Shown: in pieces, positions 1 through 42,270 of the stretch
How the letters are laid out: each line of letters starts with the position of its first letter
Position numbering within the stretch: the stretch's first letter is position 1
NCBI GenBank assembly: GCA_964016885.1
Contig: OZ024759.1
Span: 27,404,001-27,468,000 of the forward strand
Direction: 5' to 3'
DNA: 64,000 nt
From: Eledone cirrhosa
Lineage: Eukaryota
Translations under genes and position numbers: made by a program
The notes under the pieces: model-generated
What the model saw: only the letters and a program-made list of their open reading frames with translations
Database searches by the model: none
What the model was told of the DNA's origin: nothing

Positions 1-126
1 TTTGAAGAAAAAAAAAAGTTTGGTTTCGAAATTTTTCAATTGTAAATAAACAAAATTGACAAAAATAAACAGTACTTGAGAGAAAAAGTCAATAATAGTT
101 AACTGGCCTATTTTATAGTAGTAGTA

Positions 127-164
<38 letters not shown>

Positions 165-165
<1 letters not shown>

Positions 166-497
166 GTTACTGATTTAGGCACAAGGCCAGTAAATTTGGG
201 GGGAAGGGAAAATCGATTAAATCGACCCCTAGTGTGTTACTGCTATTTTATTTTATCGACCCCATAAGGATGAAAGGCAAAGCTAACCTCGGCGTAAAGG
301 GCCGTAACTCTCTGCTACAAAGCATGTTGTCCAGCACTTAACCGATACTGCCAATCTATAATAATAATAATCTCTGATTTGAGCACAAGGCCAACATTTT
401 TAGAGGGAAGGAAGATGGCAATCAATTAAATCAACCCCAGTGCATTACTGCTACTTTATTTTATTGAACCCCTGTAAGGAGGAAAGGTAAAGCTACA
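165..497 (-). mobile_element. Two copies of tRNA-derived SINE family A
   Basis: Core CTTTGCCTTTCATCCTTAyGGGGTCGATAAAATAAAGTACCAG with tail GCCTTGTGCCTAAA...(ATT)n on the minus strand. About 20 copies in the window, e.g. 12350-12512(+), 16821-16970, 37738-37930(+), 48836-48977, 50355-50540, 51056-51240, 54040-54252, 55377-55553, 58836-59145. Confidence 0.8.
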
Positions 498-1039
498 ATA
501 ATAATAATAAATGTCTTTTGACTGGGCTCAAATAGGATTAAAAGCAGGATCGAACCATGAAAAGCAGAGTTGACCCTTGAAAAGCAGAATTGACCCACGA
601 AATGCAGGGTTGACCTAAGCAAAATTTGAACTAAAAATACAGAAAGTTCACAAATACTCTAAGGTATTTCCTCTGGCAACTCACTGGCATTTCTTTGTCC
701 AGACATGCATCACCCCTTCTCTTGTCTACATACATCACACACATATCACGTACCTCTCTTCTCTACACATACATCACCTCACTCTCCTCTTCACACACAC
801 AGACACATACATTACATCCCTCTCCTCTCTTCTGTCTCTCTCTCACACACACACAAGCAAAAATACACTACACACAAACACACACTCACACAAGCAAACA
901 TACACGCAAACAAACACACACACACACAAACTCAATACAACTACTAATAACTTTGTGGAAAATGTTGTTGGAATGTAATTTTTTTTTTAATTCCCTCTTA
1001 AGGACGCTTTTAAGGTCCAGTTAAGCAGTTGTCCAGATT

Positions 1040-1440
1040 TGGGGACATATTAAAAGATTAAACATTAACAAATAATTTACTAATTCATTTCCTAACATAT
1101 TTTTGTTGTGGTTGTTGTTGTTGTTGGCATTATCATTATCAAGAATGGCCCGTGTGAATGGGCCTACCCTGAACGTGTGCCTATAGTATTGAAGGACAAC
1201 TGGGTGAAGGCTCTTGCCCTTGTGGTCAGGGTGACCATGGCTTTTGTGGGCTTTCTCCATGAGTAACCCTTGGAGTTTCCTCACCTTTGGGGAATTTGTC
1301 ATATTTGTTTTGTCTTTTTTTAAATGTTTATTTTCTTCATCTCCCTTATAAATTCTATTCTACACAAAAAAACCCACTCTGTACCATCCTGTACCGTCTT
1401 TAATGTCTCCTTAATGTGAGCCCTGTGTGGCTAATAAAGA
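1040..1440 (+). mobile_element. Degraded LINE 3' end (L1/Tx1-like, tentative)
   Basis: Ends GAGCCCTGTGTGGCTAATAAAGAA; related sequence on the minus strand at 51255-51610. Confidence 0.4.
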
Positions 1441-1587
1441 AACCATTATCATCATTATTATTATCGTTATTAATATTATCATTATCATTATATGATAGTT
1501 TTTGTAAACAAGGGGCTTCCATAATAAAGTTTATAAACAAACAAAAACAAAAACAAAACTTTAGAAATATTTACAAGTCCTTATTAG

Positions 1588-1806
1588 GGACCTAGTGTGG
1601 CATGTAATTGAGTGTAGGGGGTTTAGGGGTTGACTTATTATAGACCTAGTGTGGGAGTTAGGGGATGAGTTATTAGAGACCTAGTGTGGGGGTTAGGGGA
1701 TAAGTTATTGACTAATGTAGGAGGTTAGGGGATAAGTTATAAACTAGTGTAGGGGGTTAGGGGTGAATTATTATAGACCTAGTTTAGGGGGTGAAGGGAT
1801 GAGTTA
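1588..1806. repeat. ~33-bp minisatellite rich in TTAGGGG
   Basis: GACCTAGTGTGGGrGTTAGGGGATrAGTTATT, about 6 copies, downstream of the exon 7b stop. Confidence 0.8.
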
Positions 1807-1892
1807 GAAAAACAAAAGGAAAGATTAGGGCAAAGAATCATTATAAGGTAGAAAAAAGAGGGAAATTTGTTGGTTTGATTTTTTTTTTTCTG

Positions 1893-2006
1893 TTAGTGTA
1901 CAGGTGTTGTAATCAGCGGCATTGTAGCTTCATCCAGGTGAGAATTCAGAGGATTTGTCATGATTGGAACCAAAAGATCATCCATATTTGGTAGAACAAG
2001 TAACCT
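1893..2006 (-). CDS. TEX2: TEX2-like terminal exon 7b (distal, alternative)
   Basis: ttttcag|RLLVLPNMDDLLVPIMTNPLNSHLDEATMPLITTPVH*; 114 nt, phase 0; conserved PNMDD motif. Confidence 0.85.
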   Translation of the reverse strand, partial: RLLVLPNMDDLLVPIMTNPLNSHLDEATMPLITTPVH

Positions 2007-2204
2007 CTGAAAATACAGAAAAATATTGAATCATTATAGAAGTCGAAATATTTCTAGCAGACGAGCAAAGTGGAAGAGGAGGAAAAAATATGTAGAAACT
2101 CTACATTTATAGCTTAGAAACATAAACGTTGTCAGGGGGAAATGAAAACCAACATAACTCCAATTTTAAGTCTTTGATCATTTTGAATTCTTAGAAGCAT
2201 CCTG

Positions 2205-2584
2205 TGAAACCCCCAATGTACACTGTAAAATGGTTGTGTAGGTGTCATGACAAAAAGCCCCCAGTCCACACTGTAAAGTGGTGGTAGTGGTGTCATGACA
2301 AAAAGCACCCAGCCTAAACTGTAAAGTGGTGGTGTAGGTGTCATGACAAAAAGTATCCAGCCTACACTGTAAAGTGGTCGTGTAGGTGTGTCAAAACAAA
2401 AAGCACCCAGTACTTGCTCTAAATGAGGTTGGTGCTAGGAAGGGCATCCAGCTGTAGAAACCAAGCCAGAATCGGTTCTGTATGAGCAGGAGATGGTCAC
2501 CTGACCCGGCATTGTTCACAACAGGATAACTCGTCTAACCCATGCCAGTGTGGAAAAATGGATGTTAAACGGTGGTGATGATGG
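2205..2584 (+). mobile_element. RTE-tailed repeat with ~47-bp internal tandem units
   Basis: AAAAGCACCCAGTCCACACTGTAAAGTGG units, then GGAAGGGCATCCAGCTGTAGAAA...AACCCATGC...GTTAAACG(ATG)n. Many copies, e.g. 13985-14190(-), 21790-22036, 47645-47920(-), 49685-49890(-), 52365-52690(-). Confidence 0.75.
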
Positions 2585-2750
2585 TTTCATAGCAACAAGA
2601 AGCTGTCCATCGTTCCCATACTCCTGTAGAACCTTCCACATCAAGTCCTGTAGAATGCAGTCGTATGGCTTTTCGAGGTCTATGAAGCAGGCACACACCT
2701 CTTGGCAATACTCCCACGATTTATCAAAGACCAGTGTGAATATTTAGTCG
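2585..2750 (-). mobile_element. RTE reverse-transcriptase fragment
   Basis: KSWEY...CACFIDLEKPYD...MWKVLQEYG..GQLL (RT motif FIDLEKAYD). Confidence 0.75.
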
Positions 2751-2998
2751 GCTTATAAAATGAATATATAAATGTCAGCCCCTACCAATATAAACAGATA
2801 CAACTAACACATGTAGGAAAATTACCAACATATACATTTGAAATCAGTGAGCACTCCAGTTTGACCTTGGCTGTAAAACTAAAGAACATGTATAATAAAT
2901 AAAGTAAAAAGACATGCAAAATTGGTAATGAAATCAACAACAATAAATAGATATAGATTAAAAATAATGTTTATAATGTAAAACAAAACAATTAACAT

Positions 2999-3319
2999 AT
3001 ATACTTGAGTATAAGCCAACCCCAGAAAATCATGCCTGAGAAATGGACAAAAATTTAAACCTTATTTACAAGAATTTGAAGTTGGGTTAAAATCGTCAAA
3101 ATATTGACTTCAAATATAAATTGACCCCAGAATTTCATGTGTGAGGAATGGACAAATACCTAAACCTTATTTACAGAGAATTTGAAGTTGGTGAAAATCG
3201 TCAAAAATATTGACCACCACCACCCACCCCATATAAGACACCCCCCCCCCCCAACTTCTACCATCGATTTTCTTTTGGTCACACAAATATTCCTCGGCTT
3301 ATATTGAAATATATACGGT
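2999..3319. mobile_element. pogo/Tigger-like MITE remnant
   Basis: Ends ATATACTTGAGTATAAGCC ... GGCTTATATTGAAATATATACGGTA, with an internal ~120-bp duplication. Confidence 0.55.
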
Positions 3320-3564
3320 AAGTGTGGAATACAATTTGCATGCAACACTAAACACGATTAATTCAATAGAGATACAGACTCAAGCAGTTTATGGTGACTC
3401 ATTCTTTGTGGAAAACTGTAAGTTTGCCTGAAGTGAAACAGCAGTAATAAATTGATTATAGATCGTGCCTGATTGTAGATGTAGCCGGCCCATTTGACAC
3501 GAGAGTACAAGAAAAGGAGAGGGAGAAAATTAACTGACACCAGGATTTAAAGTGGGAGTTAAAA

Positions 3565-3845
3565 AGGATTTGGAACTGCCATGAGATCAAGGTCATCCTG
3601 ATTGTCATAGGCGCACTAGGTACTATTTAAAAGAGTTTCCAAGGATGGTTAAAGAAGATTGTCCAGCTCCACTTTTTGGAACACTTCAAAAGGCATGCTA
3701 GCTGGGAACAGCAAGAACCCTCCGATACGTCCTGAATGTCTGAGGCTGCAGGTAGCAGCTTGATATTCATTTCAACAAACTTTCCAGTTAACTAACATCA
3801 ATGACTGAGACTCAAAGAACAATAATAATAATAATAATAATAATA
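3565..3845 (+). mobile_element. R4/Dong-like RLE non-LTR element 3' end with (TAA)n tail
   Basis: IKVILIVIGALGT...LQKAC*LGTARTLRYVL followed by (AAT)n. Confidence 0.65.
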
Positions 3846-4061
3846 TGGCTTCTGATTTAGGCACAAGGCCAGCAATTTTGGGAGAGGGAGGGGGGAGTCA
3901 ATTAAATTTAATCTCGGCAGGATTAGGACGCATGACCCTCACAGGTATAAGTGGGTGAAGAAGGAGAAGATGCTTCTACTATATATCAGACAATCTTTTC
4001 CCATATGCACAAAGGAAATTCAATCAGCAATTTTATTTAGCAGAGCAGCAAACTGGGTTAA

Positions 4062-4270
4062 CCCTTTAACATTTATATTACTCTATATATATTATTATAT
4101 GTTCACAGTAAAGGGTTTACCTCACATAATATCGAATCTAGGAGATTTTAATATTATTCATTTTGAGAACAATACCTTTAACATCAGTATGAGTGGCAGG
4201 TTACGGCCAGTTTGAACAGAAAGAGTTGAGAGAATTCTGGCTAGATACAGCCGGTATAAATGCTAAAGGG
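4062..4270. mobile_element. piggyBac-type MITE
   Basis: TTAA|CCCTTTAACATTTA...TAAATGCTAAAGGG|TTAA. Confidence 0.85.
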
Positions 4271-4549
4271 TTAATGAGTGATTGTTTAGCCCAGGGTCAG
4301 CCGTGATTGAGCAAGCCTATGACCAAATATTAAAGACATGCTGAATCTGTGGCTGTACAACCGGATACAGTCAGTTTAAATGCTAAAGAATTAAAGAATA
4401 GTAAAATGTCATGCTCAAAGACAAAACAACAAAATACTTGCAGAAGGATGCTAACTCACAAACAGAAAAGCCAGTCCACCCCACACAACAACTTACTGAA
4501 AAATGAAAGGCAAAAAGGGTCCTATTTCTTTCCTTCTTCTTCTTCTTAA

Positions 4550-4745
4550 CCCTTTAGCATTTACATTACTCTATATTTTTACAGTAATGGGTTTATCTTA
4601 CATAATATCGAATCTACGAGATTTTGATGTTATCTATTTTGAGAACAATACCTTAATATAGATATGAATGGCCAGTTACGACCGGTTTAAATAGAAAGAG
4701 GTGAGAGAATTCTGGCCGGATACGGCCGGTTTAAATGCTAAAGGG
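4550..4745. mobile_element. piggyBac-type MITE (reference copy, 196 bp)
   Basis: Perfect 14-bp TIR CCCTTTAGCATTTA with TTAA TSDs. Other copies: 6211-6527, 7145-7352, 16515-16684, 19023-19252, 19964-20325, 20358-20556, 20561-20712, 37122-37329, 47188-47412, 51678-51898, 51931-52138, 53487-53692. Confidence 0.9.
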
Positions 4746-4825
4746 TTAAATTCTTTGAGTTTATAAATCAATGTTTTTGATATTAATACTGAAATTACAA
4801 CTAAATAGTCTCTAGGAATAGTAAA

Positions 4826-5135
4826 TTCTTCTTCTTCTTGGCCCACCTATTTCTGGGAGAGTTATGGGAAGCAGAGTCTTCAAACACTCCTTCCAGTGGG
4901 TCCTGTCAGAAACAACTAACTTCTTTACTTGTTACAAGCACTGGATGTTTTGATAGCCTCTTTCAAAGCATCTCTCCAGAAGCGTTCGTTCCAGGGATAG
5001 GTTTTGGCCCAAGTTCCAGGTTTTCAGATCATCCCTGATTACCTCTTCCCAGGTCTTATGTGGGCACCCCACTTCCTCATCTACCAGGGGCCACAATCTT
5101 GGTACATCGATGTATCCACTCACAAAGAGATGAGT
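4826..5135 (-). mobile_element. RTE-like LINE 3' end with (GAA)n tail
   Basis: G.PHKTWEEVIRDDL; tail ...CCCAGAAATAGGTGGGC(GAA)n; further copies at 6972-7095 and 10205-10400. Confidence 0.6.
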
Positions 5136-5774
5136 CTTAAGTGATGTCACAACCACTACATTATAATAAAGTCTTAAGATATGTCACAACCACTACATTA
5201 TCAGTTATATGATTAACCACCACCAAGTAAAAAAAAACAAGATTTGTTCTTCCTCTTCAACCTGACAAAAAATGAACAAAGTGTGGGTGTGGTGGTGGTG
5301 GTGGTGTGGGGGTGGGGGATAACCACCCCACCACACACACACACATACAACGAAAACTAACAAGATTTTTTCTCTTAAATTAAGGATATACAAAATGAAT
5401 TAAATAAAAAAAGTGCAGAACACGTTTCGTGCAACAACAACAGTCTACATCAAGTGTAACAGCAAAATAAGTCATGCATGAAACACGAAACTACTGATCC
5501 ATGAAATAAAGAAAAAAACACAAATAAAAGTGTGTGAAAGAGAAGAAAAAAAAAGACAGGCTGGCTGGCAACTAAATATCTGTGCATTGACTATAACATT
5601 CCGATAATAATAATAATATTATACATATTATACATATTATATATGGTTTGTGTGTAATATAGAATGCTGACCAGCGAGAAAACTGTCCTGACGAACACAA
5701 AGAGAGCCTGGGCAGACAATTGAGAACCAATTAAAAAATATTATGTGGCGTTTATTTAATTGTAGTCAATTGTG

Positions 5775-5888
5775 TCAGACCTCAGTGCCGCCAGGTGGAC
5801 AGACTGTGGAAGGTACAGCATCATCGGGAAGTCCTGGCAGCAACATAGGGATTACCAAGTCATCCATATTGGGCAGCACAAATATTCG
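5775..5888 (-). CDS. TEX2: TEX2-like terminal exon 7a (proximal)
   Basis: tttcttag|RIFVLPNMDDLVIPMLLPGLPDDAVPSTVCPPGGTEV*; 114 nt, phase 0; AATAAA on the minus strand at 5751-5756. Confidence 0.88.
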   Translation of the reverse strand, partial: RIFVLPNMDDLVIPMLLPGLPDDAVPSTVCPPGGTEV

Positions 5889-6605
5889 CTAAGAAATATA
5901 AAAAAAAAAAACAAAAAAAAAAACACAACAAATAAATAAGAATTTAAAAAAAAAAGTCTGTAATTTTTTTTTTGTGTGTGTTGTGTAGTTATAAATTCTC
6001 AGCTGAAATATAGAAGATATATATCATATATACAAACATAGTTATTCTTTTAATTGGTTTTTGATAAAGAAATGTAAGATAAACTTAAGGTAAAATAGAT
6101 ATCAAGGAAGAAGCTATAAGACATAATAGTCTCTAGTTGAAGCCATTAAAAAATAGATATCAAGGAAGAAGTTATAAGACTCAATCCAGTCTCCAGTTGA
6201 AGTCATTTAACCCTTTAATATTTAAATTATGCTATATATATATATATAATATATATATCATCATTTTCATTTCATTTCATTTTACGTCCGCTTTTTCCCT
6301 GCTTGCAAGGGAGGGACATATATACAATAGTATATATACAATAGTATATATATACTATTGTATTCTTGAAGTAAAGGCTTTATCTCACATAATATTGAAT
6401 TTATGAGATTCTGAAATTATTTATTTTGAGAACAGTACCTTAACATCAGTACGAACGGCTGGTTATAGCCAGTTTGAACAGAAAGAGGTGAGAGAATTCT
6501 GGCTGGATACAGCCAGTTCAAATGCTTTAGGAAATAAAATATATATATTTTTTAATGTTATTAACAAAGAAACAATATAAAGAAAGGTTTGTTTCATATT
6601 TTTAC

Positions 6606-6726
6606 CTGGAATTCAATGGTTAGTTTCTTCTCAATCCATTCAGTGACATGTGTGACTGTCACTTCTCTTTCTCCAACCTTAGGTTTAGCCACAAGAGTCA
6701 GTTGTGGATTATCACGAAAGCCATAC
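6606..6726 (-). CDS. TEX2: TEX2-like coding exon 6
   Basis: ttcag|(W)YGFRDNPQLTLVAKPKVGEREVTVTHVTEWIEKKLTIEFQ|GTAAA; 121 nt, phase 2/0. Confidence 0.95.
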
Positions 6727-7962
6727 CTGAAGCAGAAAATAATATTACACATGTTCAAAATTAAAAAAAATATTTTCCATGCTTTAGTCTTAGAAAGAAT
6801 AGTAGCACACACACACACATTAGTGTGAAAATGGAAGTGAGAAAGAGATATAAAGAAAGAATTAACCCCAGTACTGGACTGGTACATTTTTTATCAACCT
6901 CGAAAGGATGAAAGGCAAAGTTGATTTGCTGTATTCATAGCCAAAACATATAACTTTCTATCGTGTAACCATCTTCTTCTTCGCCCACTTATTCCTGAGA
7001 GGGTTGAGAGGGCAGAATCCTCAAACACTCCTTCCAGCGAGTCCTGTCAGAAGCAGCCATCTCCAACTGATCCCGTTGGATCCCTAAGTGTGACCAGCCA
7101 ACACAATGGAATACAATGAAAACAGAAAATCGCTGTTCCATTAACTCTTTAGCATTTACTATTGTATATATACTCAATATATACTATTGTATTTTCACAG
7201 TAAAGGCTTCACCTCACATAATATTGAATCTATGAGATTTTGATATTATCTATTTTGAGAACAATACCTTAACATCAATATGAGTCACCAGTTACAGCTG
7301 GTTTGAACAGAAAGAGGTAAGAGAATTCTGGCTGGATACGGCCAGTTTAAATTTCAGCAGTGAATCTGAGTCAGCTTGAGGACTTAAATTTTATCATTGT
7401 TACTCAACATGGTTAATAAATGATTAACTATTAGAAATATCTCATTCTAACTTGTTTACTGAATGTCATTAATTATTAATCATCATCTGTTATAGGAAGC
7501 AGTCACACCAGACTTCTTGTCAACAACCGAAATGAATAATTTTTTTTTTTTATAACCTGTACTATATGTGTGTGTGTGGGAGGGGAGGGGGGTATATATC
7601 TGTTATTCCATCTTGTCTTTTTTTGTGGTATATAGTAGGAAATGATTACAATAAGATATATTTGAAAAAAATGCTTATTTTACACAAACACATATATATA
7701 AGTGTTGTAGTTTGTTTGAAGCATTGTGGAATAAGAAATACAAATTCAAATAAGTTTAAATATTTGGAAGCCCTACAATGCATGCAAGATTAAAAGTGCC
7801 AAGGTAATAGGAGTTATAGAGAATAAAGGATTGAGAAAAGAGTGATGATGATGATGATGTTAATGATGAACCCTCTCCCTTCGCTCCACGATACAGAGAA
7901 ATAAATGGTTAATCTCCCCACACACTCCGCCCCAGCTGTGATAAAACAGTGAAAGTACTTAC

Positions 7963-8193
7963 CACAGTCTATCTGTAGGTGGTGGTGGCACATTTATAGT
8001 AAGTACACCGTTTAGACAGTGCACCTCAACAGTAAGAATAAGTGGTGTATTTGATACACCTTCCATTGCCTTCTTTATATATTTGTACTCAGTGGCTTGC
8101 TGGAAATACTTGGACTGGGTGATCATATCAATGTATCGCAGTATCTTGCGGCTCGCACCACTGCCACTACCTCCAATTTGTGGAACTCCGCTG
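7963..8193 (-). CDS. TEX2: TEX2-like coding exon 5
   Basis: tttgcag|...SRKILRYIDMITQSKYFQQATEYKYIKKAMEGVSNTPLILTVEV...INVPPPPTDRL TG|GTAAG; 231 nt, phase 2/2. Confidence 0.95.
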
Positions 8194-8705
8194 CTGCAAA
8201 GAAGGAAAAACATCTGCTGTTAAGTTTATAGGTTTATGGCCTTCAAGTCCACACTGTAAAGTGGTCGTGTAGGTGACATGACAAAAAACACCCAGGCCAC
8301 ACTGTAAAGTGATTGTGTGGGTATCACGACAAAAAGCACCCAGGCCACACTACTGAAAAGTGGTCTTGTAGATGACATGACAAAAAGCATTTAGGGTGGA
8401 TGGCTGTTGACTCTGAGGAATTCATCCACTCTTTTTAACAGCTCTATTTTTTTTTTTGCTGCTAGGGTTCCACTTATCTTTCTCACTAGACCAGGGTCTG
8501 GTGGAGGAGCTGGTTTAGTGGCCAGCCAATCAACCATGAAGCAGGTTGTACTGGGTTACATGGTACCAGTAGCAGACAGAAGCCTGACCTGATATTGACC
8601 ATGAAGTAGAGGTTGTACTAGGTTACATGATACCAGTAGCAGACGGAAGCCTGACCTGACCATACTACCTACACTCACACTGAGAGACATACAGATATAT
8701 CTTAC

Positions 8706-8789
8706 CTGTCTTCTATACCATTATCATCTGGTTCTTCATCTGTTGAAGACTCAGCACTATCTTCCTCATTGGAATCAGTCACTGCAGAA
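8706..8789 (-). CDS. TEX2: TEX2-like coding exon 4 (acidic linker)
   Basis: cttgtag|(R)SAVTDSNEEDSAESSTDEEPDDNGIED AG|GTAAG; 84 nt, phase 2/2; the EDSAESS-DEE motif matches TEX2. Confidence 0.9.
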
Positions 8790-8856
8790 CTACAAGAAAG
8801 AAATGAAGTAAATACTTTAAGTTGGCTTTTAGGAATCAATGTTAAATAAAGTAAAA

Positions 8857-9650
8857 GCAGTGCAGTGCAGTGCAGTGCAGTGCAGTGCAGTGCAGTGCAG
8901 TATAGTGTAGTATAGTGTAGTGTAGTGTAGTGTAGTGTAGTGTAGTGTAGTGTAGTGTAGTATCGTATAGTGTAGTGTAGTGTAGTGTAGTGTAGTGTAG
9001 TGTAGTGTAGTGTAGTGTAGTATCATATAGTATAGTATAGCATAGTATAGTATAGTGTAGTGTAGTATAGTATAGTGTAGTGTAGTATAGTATAGTGTAG
9101 TGTAGTATAGTGTAGTAGAGTGTAGTGTAGTATAGTGTAGTATCATATAGTATAGTATAGCATAGTATAGTATAGTGTAGTGTAGTATAGTATAGTGTAG
9201 TGTAGTATAGTATAGTGTAGTGTAGTATAGTGTAGTAGAGTGTAGTGTAGTATAGTGTAGTAAAGTATAGTGTAGTGTAGTATAGTGTAGTAGAGTATAG
9301 TATAGAGTAGTATAGTATAGTGTAGTATAGTATAGTGTAGTACATTATAGTACAGTGTAGTATAGTATAGTGTAGTACATTATAGTACAGTGTAGTATAG
9401 TATAGTACATTAAAGTACAGTGTGTTGTAGTATAGTATGGAGTAGTATAGCACAGGATAGTATAGTACAGTGTACAATATAGTATAGTAGTGTATTACAG
9501 TACAGTATAGTGTATTACAGCAGAGTATAGTATAATGTACAGTACAGTATAGTGTATTACAGTAGAGTATAATATAGTGTATAATATAGTGTACAGTACA
9601 GTATAGTACAATGTAGCAAAGTATAGTACAATGTAGTACAGTATAGTATA
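8857..9650. repeat. Pentanucleotide microsatellite (CAGTG/TAGTG/TAGTA)n
   Basis: Direct inspection; gives rise to the spurious Y/T/L/H ORFs. Confidence 0.95.
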
Positions 9651-9679
9651 TAGTCAAATTCAAAATATATTATACAAAC

Positions 9680-9903
9680 CGTTTGCTTGAAAGAACTGGA
9701 GATTTTTCAAGTGACTTTTTCTTAAGTTTCATAAGATTAACCTTAGTAGAAATAGTCATCTTGAAGCCGCCAGTATACATCGTCTGTAGGTCAACCCAGA
9801 AACCACGTTCATCCAGATAGGGTTTAGAGGACTTCTGAAGAATCGGGATTGAAGTACCTAAATCAATGTCAGTTATTTTCAGCTCTTCAATGAAATATGG
9901 TAC
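9680..9903 (-). CDS. TEX2: TEX2-like coding exon 3 (SMP domain)
   Basis: tttccag|VPYFIEELKITDIDLG...DERGFWVDL...TKVNLMKL...CG|GTTTG; 224 nt, phase 0/2. Confidence 0.95.
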
Positions 9904-10469
9904 CTGGAAATTGGAAACAAAAAACATCAAATGGAAATATTATTTGTTACCTCAAACATTCATAAAATAAATATGGATAAAAACAAAACAGTTTATGAAT
10001 TATTAAGATAAAGGTTTCAGGAGAAAAAAATATAAATAAATAAAAATAAAATAAAATAGAAAATTAGATTAAATAAATAAATATGTGTGGCTTGGAGATC
10101 AGAGAGTTGCTCCAGGTAGAGCTGCTACTTCTCTGAATTAAGAGATCACAGCTCCAATACTATAGGTATGTGGTTAGAATGTCTCAGGAAAGAATCGCTG
10201 GACAGATTTTATGGAGAAAACCAGCTGGCAGGAGACCCAGGGGTAGACTTCGAGCAAGATAGTTGGATAACATCCATGAGCTCGGCTGGTCTCGCTTGGG
10301 AATCCAGCCGGATCAGTTGGGGCTTGAGTGCTTGAGGACTCTGCTCCCACAACCCTCTCAGGAATAAGTGGGAGAAGAAGGAGAACAATAATAATAATGA
10401 TGATTTAAGAAGAAAAAGAAGAAAAAGGAGGAGGAGGAGAAGAAGAAGGAAAAAAAAAACATTGCTCAC

Positions 10470-11468
10470 ATGAATTTTGCTTAGTTTTTTCTGTAACTTT
10501 TCCATCACTTTTTCAGTCCAGGATTTATCTTGTAAGAAATCCCATAAACAACGTCCGATTAAAGCATTTATCCAAAGAAGCTGTGGTTCGCTAAAGTCTA
10601 GTATGGTACACGGAAGATCAGGGGAAGGAACTTCCCGAGAGGTTGGACTGCTCGGTGTACTCGATGCCGACACTGAGGAAGATTCTCTTCGTGATCGAAC
10701 TGTTGTGCTTGAGTTTGATTTGACTTCATCAAAACTAGCCGGCATTAATTTGGCCATGTATTGAGAAAACTTCTTCAAGTTAGTCTGTTGAAAATCCTCC
10801 GATTTTGGAGATAAACTGGCAGTGGATTCAACGGGAGTGGTTGCAGCAGAGGAATTCATGGAATCCATAGAATTGTGGCGCTTGTGTCTCTGAAACCCAT
10901 CAGCTAAACCGATATTCGTATCAGAGTCACTACGCTTATGATGTGAAGGTACTTTTAAAGCATTACGAATTTCTTGGATGTGATTACCCAAAGGCAAGCC
11001 TAAAGAGGCAGCATGGAATCTCTTGTACCATTCTTCTTTCTCTCTCCCTGTGCGAGCAAATAAATAAAGAATTGTAGGAGAAAGTGAGTCTGCAGAAATT
11101 ACTTCAAAACCCATGTCAAGGCTGGGGGAGGACATAGTGTCTTTCAATGGCTTCTTTTGCAAAGACGGAGCAGGTTTACAAGCACTGTTTTTTGTCAAGT
11201 CTATACATATTGGGTATTTTTTACTCCAGAGGCGTTTCTTAACAAGTCCTGCAGGGAGGAGAAACACTCGACAATCATTCAAATCAAAATGGCGCTGGTT
11301 GATGAATGTGGGGTTAGAGAGGTTTTCATCGAACATAGCACGTTTTGGTACATTGGTTTTGGGAGAGGAAAGACGTAAGGTAACCCCTTCAAGGCGAATA
11401 TATACAGAGCTGGTTTTATTAATGTGATAGTTATCGGGATCATAGTAGAACAGTTCATTCATCCAGCC
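10470..11468 (-). CDS. TEX2: TEX2-like coding exon 2 (PH-like domain and start of SMP domain)
   Basis: ttttcaag|GWMNELFYYDPDNYH...RLEGVTLRLS...KKRLWSKKYPICI...LFARTGREKEEW...WINALIGR...KLSKIH|GTGAG; 999 nt, phase 0/0; motifs typical of TEX2. Confidence 0.95.
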
Positions 11469-11516
11469 CTTGAAAATATAAATAAGAAAAAATTATATGA
11501 GAATAAAGTTGAAGAA

Positions 11517-11932
11517 TAGCAACAAGATATACCGTGATAGCAACAAGATATACCACAGTTAGCAACAAGATATATCATAGTTAAGCAACAAGATATACCA
11601 TAGTTAGCGACAAGATATACCATAGTTAGCAACAACATATACGACGGTTAGCAACAAGATATACCGTGATAGCAACAAGATATGCCACAGTTAGCAACAA
11701 GATATGCCACAGTTAGCAATAAGGTATACCATAGTTAGCAATAAGATATACCATGGTTAGCAATAACATATACCATGGTTAGCAACAAGATATACCACAG
11801 TTAGCAACAAGATATACCATGGTTAGCAACAAGATATACCATGGTTAGCAACAAGATATACCATGGTTAGCAACAAGATATACCATGGTTAACAACAAAA
11901 TGTACCATGATAGCAACAAAATATATATCATG
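11517..11932. repeat. 22-bp minisatellite AGCAACAAGATATACCATGGTT
   Basis: About 19 tandem copies; the same unit recurs at 18211-18298. Confidence 0.95.
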
Positions 11933-11937
11933 ACAAA

Positions 11938-41239: not shown

Positions 41240-42270
41240 TGTTCTTCTGGTTTTATAATTTCACAAATTTTTGCAATAGAGAGAGTCGGTTTCTAACATA
41301 AACACAAGACTCTTTCATTGGAATTTACACATCAACTAGGTAGATATGTATGCATGTCTGCATGCATGCATGTGTAGATATGGATGTTATTATATGTGTG
41401 GATGTGTATGTTTTGAGTTGTATGTGTGCATGTGTATATGCTTAGTATCTGTACATGTGTATATGCAGTTATTAGATGCAAAATTTTTGGAATGTTTTAC
41501 TTATTTTTACTGTTCCATTAATGGATTGTACTTGTAATTTCCTAACTAGTTGTGTTTTTTCTGTTCCTGTGAAGCCCAGCTTCTCAAGATTTGTATTGAG
41601 GCAGTTACTAACATATCCCAGTGCCCCAATAATCACAGGTATACATCTGAAGGTGTAATCAGGGTGGAGTATCTGCAGATTTCTCATTAGTTCTGCATAA
41701 ATATTCTCCTTTTCGCTAATCTTTGATATTATATTGGCATCTGCTGGACAGCTAACTTCCACTACTGTGCATGCTTTCTTTTCCCTGTCCCATATCATAT
41801 CTGGTCTGTTATGCCTGCATTTTATTGGGGTTTTTACTGAAACATTCCACCACTACTCTTTCATATTATGTATATGTAAGTCTTCCACATTGCTGTAGCT
41901 TTTAATGTGTTTATTATCAGGGCTATCTTTTCTACGGATTGTATTGTACAGTGTTTTGGCCACTACATCATGCCTCATAGGTAGATAGTACCGCGATGAC
42001 ATCTTTGGACAGCTGCTTATGACATGGGTGACATCTTCGATGTTAATTCTGCAGAGTCTAGTTTGCACTTGTTATCACATCTAGGTGTTTTGCCTGCATC
42101 CCTATCTCTTTTGTGAATCAGGTATTTTGTGTTTATTTCCTGTTCTTGGATTGCAAAAGCGTATCCTTCAAAGTGGGAGACAATATAGTGGTTGTTGGTC
42201 CAAGATAGACTACTTTCTTTATCTATATTACTCTCACTCTGGAGCTTCCTGGCAACGTCTCCATGCATGA
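41240..42270 (-). mobile_element. R4/Dong-like RLE non-LTR element 3' portion
   Basis: EGYAFAIQEQEINTK, zinc knuckle RLC....EDVTHVISSC, RPD..WD....CTVVEVSCP, IPVIIGALG; frameshifted. Confidence 0.85.

Follow-up and report, generated by a model that had tools for sequence, protein, structure and literature searches.

Tandem tail exons of TEX2 in the octopod Eledone cirrhosa: a stop-bearing cassette with a class I PDZ-type end is spliced onto its downstream duplicate

In the plasma-membrane calcium ATPases ATP2B1 and ATP2B2, the variant is a cassette at splice site C that toggles a class I PDZ ligand, where inclusion of the cassette removes the ligand and changes calmodulin regulation. Both genes are listed as C-terminal events of Bilateria age in the supplement to a human catalogue listing substitutions that derive from tandem exon duplication, where the C-terminal class comprises 77 of 236 events and is attributed, in the parts of that paper covered here, to alternative polyadenylation (PMC8373072). 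The present analysis concerns the 3′ end of TEX2 within a stretch of 64,000 nucleotides (nt) from Eledone cirrhosa (assembly GCA_964016885.1, contig OZ024759.1, positions 27,404,001 to 27,468,000 of the forward strand; hereafter the window). The minus-strand gene in the window is, by sequence likeness, octopod TEX2, matching Octopus bimaculoides at 99% over the SMP exon and the TEX2 of O. sinensis at 74-99% over the larger of the constitutive exons. Taken as a whole, the evidence makes it probable that a stop-bearing cassette (exon A) is included in or skipped from the TEX2 message, with inclusion adding a C-terminal docking motif and with the downstream exon (exon B) providing a tail-neutral default.

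The features concerned in this choice are as follows, with supporting evidence in brackets and with X4 denoting a sequencing run that is described below:
6606..6726, minus strand: last constitutive coding exon, ending in ...LTIEFQ, whose donor at 6606 serves A and B alike (the long X4 contig stops exactly at 6606; joint 6606>2006)
5672..5888, minus strand: exon A, a 217-nt cassette with a coding part at 5888-5775 (37 amino acids (aa), GTEV end, stop TGA), 103 nt of 3′ untranslated region (UTR) and the donor CTG/GTCAGC (X4 record 5 and the GT-AG joint 5672>2006)
1893..2006, minus strand: coding part of exon B (37 aa, TPVH end, stop TAA), translated if A is skipped and 3′ UTR if A is included (joints 6606>2006 and 5672>2006)
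436..1892, minus strand: common 3′ UTR, in which X4 contigs reach at least 436 (X4 records 1 and 2)

The two tail exons had been described in a sequence-only reading of the window as minus-strand, phase-0 exons of 114 nt each including the stop (A 5888-5775, B 2006-1893), preceded by AG acceptors, and this description was confirmed with exact translations; the end of exon A, which had been taken to lie near its stop, was found in X4 to extend to a GT donor at 5672/5671. The full-length protein measures 1017 aa with the A ending and 1017 aa with the B ending as well, and the two forms differ solely in their final 37 residues. Pyrimidines make up 89% of the 27 nt upstream of the A acceptor and 67% of those upstream of the B acceptor, and 59-74% at the five other acceptors of the gene. 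Exons A and B are alike at 8/10 residues and 22/30 bases over the first 10 codons, at 10 of the first 16 residues in the same phase, and at 13 residues and 49/114 bases over the whole 38 codons, with unrelated tails past about codon 16. They are thus two homologous tandem exons sharing at least 8 homologous residues, as in tandem exon duplication-derived substitutions. No third copy of the PN[ML]DD motif was found in the minus-strand TEX2 region of the window or in the 10 kb beyond the window start, the one further match to this pattern, at 14687, being unrelated sequence, and genome searches returned one place each for exon A (DNA query) and exon B (protein query). Equal length was also considered as a mark of constraint on the two exons and was rejected, with B-type peptides of 32, 57, 24, and 34 aa in relatives; each of the four coleoid A sequences compared has an exon A peptide of 37 aa, and to judge from these lengths the shared 114 nt is chance. 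AATAAA occurs at 465 and 460 within a repeat-rich stretch of the common 3′ UTR.

Evidence for splicing was drawn from four runs of a single study whose kind is recorded as '?', of which X1 and X4 were examined, the latter as contigs. When X1 and X4 contigs were placed at 92% likeness, repeats dominated the outcome (1803 joints, of which 15 were listed), and X4 alone was re-placed at 99%. X1 behaves as DNA, with contigs at 5361-6227 and 1435-2248 running unbroken across both splice sites. X4, a single sample, was classed as RNA from its spliced contigs, including a contig of 3265 nt that links the constitutive exons and stops exactly at 6606. Nine X4 joints were listed at 99% likeness, six of which lie between repeats and three of which are GT-AG joints on the minus strand, namely 7960>6723, 6606>2006 (depth 23.2), and 5672>2006 (depth 12.8). 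Record 5 of X4 is a contig of 276 nt that consists of 29 letters on the B side, exon A at 5888-5672 (217 nt), and 30 unplaced upstream letters, a layout that matches a unitig between two branch points, while the downstream X4 contig (depth 35.6) begins at 2007, the base on which both joined forms converge.

Exon A is a stop-bearing cassette spliced onto B and not simply a last exon. Because the joint 5672>2006 leaves the A and B forms with the same 3′ UTR, that of B, the choice is one of cassette inclusion versus skipping: the protein ends in the GTEV tail when A is included, with B becoming 3′ UTR, and in the TPVH tail when A is skipped. Two junctions had been proposed from the sequence, of which 6606>2006 is present in X4 at the depth given above; 6606>5888 is not among the listed joints, and its existence is strongly indicated by the 30 leftover letters at exactly 5888, the end of the upstream contig at 6606, and the proteins of relatives that read EFQ/RIFV. 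Either copy thus completes a given protein and both transcripts are present (the B joint listed directly, the A form through its contig and its downstream joint, and both proteins occurring in relatives), in line with the earlier claim that both tail exons are used. An in-frame internal donor in A (TTG/GTAATC, 5856), which would fuse the first 11 codons of A to B, is unsupported, with the A contig passing through it. Low X4 depth at 5416-5679, in the intron directly past the A donor, may reflect a retained intron, an extended UTR, or a repeat.

An alternative last exon is an upstream exon without a used donor, and the A donor at 5672 is joined to 2006 in X4, so the proposal in the sequence-only reading of alternative last exons chosen by alternative polyadenylation is not supported in the form given. 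It is improbable, too, that A serves chiefly as a genuine alternative last exon, with cleavage and polyadenylation about 20 nt past ATTAAATAAA and with the A>B splice as a minor product of read-through, or, in a weaker version, that A is a hybrid exon with both roles. Two features around exon A were found by motif scan:
5751..5760, minus strand: overlapping ATTAAA/AATAAA, 15-24 nt past the A stop and ahead of a U-rich stretch, which may form a poly(A) site within exon A
5473..5478, minus strand: TGCATG, downstream of the donor of A by about 190 nt, a weak lead

TGCATG at 5473-5478, which we take to be an Rbfox-type motif, has a background of 0.45 per kb, with about 0.14 expected in 300 nt. The poly(A)-signal-like ATTAAATAAA lies at 5760-5751 on the minus strand within the UTR of A and may let A act as a terminal exon part of the time, the hexamers being followed by CA and the U-rich stretch. 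The A donor (GTCAGC) moreover departs from consensus at its +3 base, contigs would not show a poly(A) end since their assembly discards short tips, and C-terminal tandem-duplicate swaps are ascribed to alternative polyadenylation in the covered parts of the human catalogue (PMC8373072). However, the AATAAA background on the minus strand is 1.23 per kb, so that a single match is not rare, and the sole listed A-containing contig continues past the hexamers as far as 5672, where it is joined to B. The depth downstream (35.6) is also close to the sum of the skip and A depths (23.2 + 12.8), which would leave little space for early-ending A molecules, although depth is a poor measure and the agreement is a consistency check only and no measurement.

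Relatives were collected through three homologue searches and three cluster look-ups, in which 30 clusters were opened. Both endings are carried by O. bimaculoides (P0003 with A and P0124 with B) and by a Logan decapodiform cluster that includes Sepia pharaonis (P0128/P0130 with A and P0006/P0129 with B); among the sequences retrieved, Argonauta and another decapodiform-like cluster yielded only B, and O. sinensis only A. The A peptide of the window is identical to P0003 at 33/37 residues and to the decapodiform P0128 at 29/37, and over its first 20 residues the B peptide shares 19 with Argonauta, 17 with O. bimaculoides, and 12 with the decapodiform forms. Annotated isoform pairs with the same swap point, after ...EFQ and with 99-100 of 100 upstream residues identical within each pair, occur in two species of Haliotis, in three of Mytilus, and in the nemertean Lineus. 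A second tail was absent from the clusters opened for Aplysia, Biomphalaria, Bradybaena, Patella, Dreissena, Ostrea, Saccostrea, Tachypleus, a scorpion, a termite, Ptychodera, Amphiura, and sea cucumbers, which is an absence at the level of annotation and not of the genome, and in the six groups of ecdysozoan and ambulacrarian clusters opened, those of Tachypleus, scorpion, termite, Ptychodera, Amphiura, and Apostichopus, every motif-bearing isoform has one common tail.

In a tree of 24 columns with an unconverged bootstrap, the coleoid A tails (96/95) and the coleoid B tails (100/98) form separate clades, each with octopods and decapodiforms. A species-specific duplication, with A and B as sisters, was rejected by the approximately unbiased (AU) test (p-AU 0.008), while none of five deeper arrangements was rejected (p-AU 0.33-0.43, 22-24 columns), and neither a single mollusc-wide duplication nor independent duplications are excluded by the test. 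Since both clades hold octopods and decapodiforms and a species-specific origin is rejected, the duplication is, on the evidence of these tails, older than the octopus-squid split. The earlier claim of a tandem duplication with both exons under selection is supported. The octopus-squid split dates to about 270 million years ago. The Haliotis, Mytilus, and Lineus pairs appear analogous to coleoid A/B, their second exons being possible orthologues of coleoid B. The only tail in the scallop and oyster entries P0028, P0031, P0032, P0036, P0280, and P0281 groups with Mytilus X2 (98/79), which suggests loss or non-annotation of an A-type exon. Nucella (P0052/P0064) and Babylonia (P0094/P0104) each have two TEX2-like proteins on contigs of different length, one with a class I end (TAL, SPL) and the other without, and in these neogastropods the two-tail split was possibly reached via gene duplication.

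The position of the A stop, 103 nt ahead of the last junction, raises a second alternative. Exon-junction complex (EJC)-mode nonsense-mediated decay (NMD) is ancient, and junctions at least 50 nt downstream of a stop are able to trigger decay (excerpt of PMC6173133). The geometry of exon A falls within this range, and the A form could on this basis be an NMD substrate, which weighs against the cassette reading. It is nevertheless distinctly improbable that inclusion of A acts mainly as a switch of alternative splicing coupled to NMD, lowering the TEX2 level and yielding little A-tailed protein in this species. The A contig is lower in depth than the skip contig, as such a switch would have it, but the identity of the A peptide to its octopus and decapodiform counterparts and its invariant GTEV are needless for a poison exon, the A-type is the only form retrieved for many molluscs, and A is present at steady state. 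Furthermore, sensitisation to NMD is reported not to be the predominant effect of bona fide introns within the 3′ UTR in human samples (excerpt of PMC13223760). No published study was found on NMD rules in molluscs, and the A>B splice-through geometry offers a natural reporter for exon-junction-based NMD in this group.

The part of the protein encoded by the tail exon was assessed on an AlphaFold model of the orthologue P0003, built from a 56-row alignment with a mean predicted local distance difference test score (pLDDT) of 57. The coding exons upstream of 6726 in the window are as follows:
14256..15570, minus strand: TEX2 coding exon 1 (ATG at 15536), with the N-terminal disordered region plus a putative membrane hairpin (O. 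sinensis TEX2 by tblastn; spliced X4 piece 15571-14255; modelled helices in P0003)
10470..11468, minus strand: coding exon for the PH-like domain and the start of the SMP domain (X4 contig, tblastn, P0003 model, Pfam)
9680..9903, minus strand: coding exon, SMP domain (tblastn, gene model)
8706..8789, minus strand: coding exon, acidic insert within the SMP domain (tblastn, gene model)
7963..8193, minus strand: coding exon, SMP domain (X4 joint 7960/6723, tblastn)

Together with 6726-6606, and with the first counted from its ATG (15536-14256), these make up six constitutive coding exons of 980 codons. The exons at 9680..9903 and 8706..8789 jointly explain the 303 letters of the X4 contig that had no place. 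This spliced TEX2 contig opens with 290 letters that are absent from window positions 1-16000, and one or more 5′ UTR exons probably lie further upstream. The acceptor of the 8193 exon is a tandem CAG-CAG (8196-8190, minus strand), which may account for the O. sinensis isoforms of 1002 and 1001 aa, both A-tailed.

In the P0003 model, helices at 304-319 and 324-363 form a hairpin (304-363) that is a putative membrane anchor, the Pfam family MMM1 scores above its cut-off and PH_SMPa below, and Foldseek returns Mmm1/Mdm12 (SMP proteins, the best PDB matches) at E about 1e-6 and a kindlin PH domain at E 9e-4. The orthologue therefore combines PH and SMP domains with a presumed membrane anchor. The tail exon starts within the last SMP helix (929-948), at residue 945, and contributes the final strand (953-956), and on this model the SMP barrel very probably owes the completion of its last helix and its last strand to the first ~15 residues of A or B. 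If so, every functional protein needs A or B, and the following ~22 residues would be a free tail. Residues 960-981 have a modelled pLDDT below 50. Between octopus and decapodiforms, the A tail is identical at 17/22 positions, and seven other low-confidence segments are identical at 244/447; the B tail is unconserved past about residue 20 and is 24-57 aa long in relatives. The cysteine in C-P-P-x-G-T-E-V (window 5805-5775, minus strand) is kept in all coleoid A tails compared, where a putative lipidation site is conceivable.

The consensus of a class I PDZ ligand is S/T-x-V/I/L at a free C-terminus, with which exon A, ending in T-E-V and then the stop, agrees. For the count of motif ends, each genus, gene copy, or unassigned cluster contributed a single row, after exclusion of non-mollusc proteins of less than 400 aa, lacking PN[ML][DE][DE], or with tails of less than 20 aa. 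Class I ends occur on 15/31 A-type mollusc tails, 0/12 B-type tails, and 9/166 distinct non-mollusc tails, with shuffled A tails giving a mean of 1.6 and a maximum of 8 in 5000 trials, and in 7/7 mollusc isoform pairs the motif is on just one member; the sorting into A and B was done by eye while the ends were visible and the rows are related, so that Fisher p-values are inflated, and the 7 pairs represent 3 lineages. The contrast between A-type and B-type tails is, by these counts, real, and the motif lies in an accessible, disordered, and conserved tail, as judged from the low pLDDT at 960-981 and the excess over 1.6 expected ends. A PDZ-type class I tail on one exon only, as previously read from the sequence, is thereby retained. 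Class I ends outside molluscs include P0158 from the hemichordate Glandiceps, which also ends in GTEV, and P0016 from Strigamia, which may represent convergence or a deeper PDZ link.

Under the favoured reading, the TEX2 tail exon was duplicated in tandem, and either copy would be able to complete the SMP lipid-transfer domain. Skipping of A joins donor 6606 to B at 2006 and would give the tail-neutral default protein, whereas inclusion of A, by 6606>5888 and then 5672>2006, would give a protein terminating in GTEV with B as 3′ UTR; the splicing of A would be regulated, and its T-E-V would dock TEX2 on a PDZ scaffold at a membrane contact. That the A tail functions as a class I PDZ ligand, adding a second, C-terminal recruitment route to a transfer protein anchored in the endoplasmic reticulum (ER), with B as the tail-neutral default, is suggested by the sequence comparisons with slightly better than even confidence. 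Worm TEX-2 is redundant with PDZD-8 (excerpt of PMC8523718), which makes PDZD8 an obvious candidate partner.

Besides the NMD geometry and the manner of labelling the tails, several observations weigh against this reading. The class I motif is missing from 16/31 A-type tails, including those of all seven heterobranch snails (five of which end in a class II-like V/I-S-L), and the Lineus pair has it on neither isoform. The disordered segment 812-839 is conserved to a degree like that of the A tail (22/28). The joint 6606>5888 is missing from the joint table, where two joints at repeats were dropped and the A acceptor lies behind a poly-T run, and the spliced evidence comes from a single run, as contigs only, from one sample with unrecorded tissue and an RNA nature deduced from the contigs. 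In addition, human Tex2 is recruited via its N-terminus (TMEM55) and regulated via its PH domain, not via the C-terminal tip, according to the covered parts of a preprint (bioRxiv 10.1101/2022.07.12.499833).

A broader version of the cassette reading, which is tentative and rather doubtful, places a single duplication before the gastropod-bivalve-cephalopod split, perhaps shared with nemerteans. The PDZ ligand of the cassette would then retarget the ER tether to a PDZ scaffold, for example PDZD8 at late endosomes or a neuronal plasma-membrane scaffold, while the 3′ UTR junction would make the A mRNA short-lived or separately localised. If true, one splicing choice would set both the docking site of the tether and the lifetime of its message.

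Marginally less probable again than the NMD switch is that the two tails are functionally equivalent or that B is a tolerated relic, with each exon kept only for its ability to round off the SMP fold and with a PDZ-like end that has no partner. The lack of conservation in the distal B tail would agree with this, as would the 157/166 non-mollusc TEX2 tails without the motif and the retrieval of only B-like forms in scallops and oysters and only A-like forms in many snails and clams, by which either may suffice. Yet both copies have been retained since before the octopus-squid split, the motif on A is far above what composition predicts, and a second form missing from annotation does not prove the exon missing. 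That the pair is an artefact, whether a duplicate from mis-assembly or an allele, a piece of a paralogue, or a chimeric joint between contigs, is scarcely credible and already largely refuted: the A-B interval is repeat-rich with many false joints from the runs, but the copies differ at 8 of the first 30 bases, each maps once and has orthologues in other species, and both joints are GT-AG and land on the exact B acceptor.

Elsewhere in the window, short frames at 21454-21759, 26719-27039, and 41475-42071 lie among long AT microsatellites. By eye they resemble what are presumably reverse-transcriptase ends of long interspersed nuclear elements (LINE) and a mariner-type transposase fragment.

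What brings SMP lipid-transfer proteins to one membrane contact or another is a matter of active research, on which a conserved and switchable PDZ-type tail bears. For TEX2, Nvj2, and C. elegans TEX-2, no C-terminal isoform, PDZ ligand, C-terminal targeting, or isoform switch is described in the covered parts of the Tex2 preprint, in which the string 'splic' has no match (bioRxiv 10.1101/2022.07.12.499833), or in the part of the worm study covered (PMC8523718), and no publication was found on TEX2 C-terminal isoforms. The isoforms are known from proteins, as automated RefSeq/GenBank predictions only, in O. bimaculoides (XP_014777264.1 with B and UniRef A0A0L8GX32 with A), Haliotis rufescens (XP_046337217.2/XP_046337218.2), Mytilus edulis (XP_071129955.1/XP_071129956.1), and Lineus longissimus (XP_064627119.1/XP_064627128.1). 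Surprise is limited, as events of this class are well known and automated annotation of relatives already includes the isoforms. Octopod TEX2 resembles the C-terminal class of the human catalogue, in whose covered text and supplementary table TEX2 does not occur, in having homologous tandem exons with swapped, partly homologous C-termini, which are typically ancient (PMC8373072). It differs in that the catalogue, in the same parts, assigns C-terminal events to alternative polyadenylation (PMC8373072), whereas the upstream copy in octopod TEX2 is spliced onto the downstream copy, a layout that is less usual within the known class. As in ATP2B1 and ATP2B2, a duplicated C-terminal exon alters the tail of a membrane protein; unlike in those genes, inclusion in TEX2 adds the motif, and the duplicated part would complete the lipid-transfer barrel.

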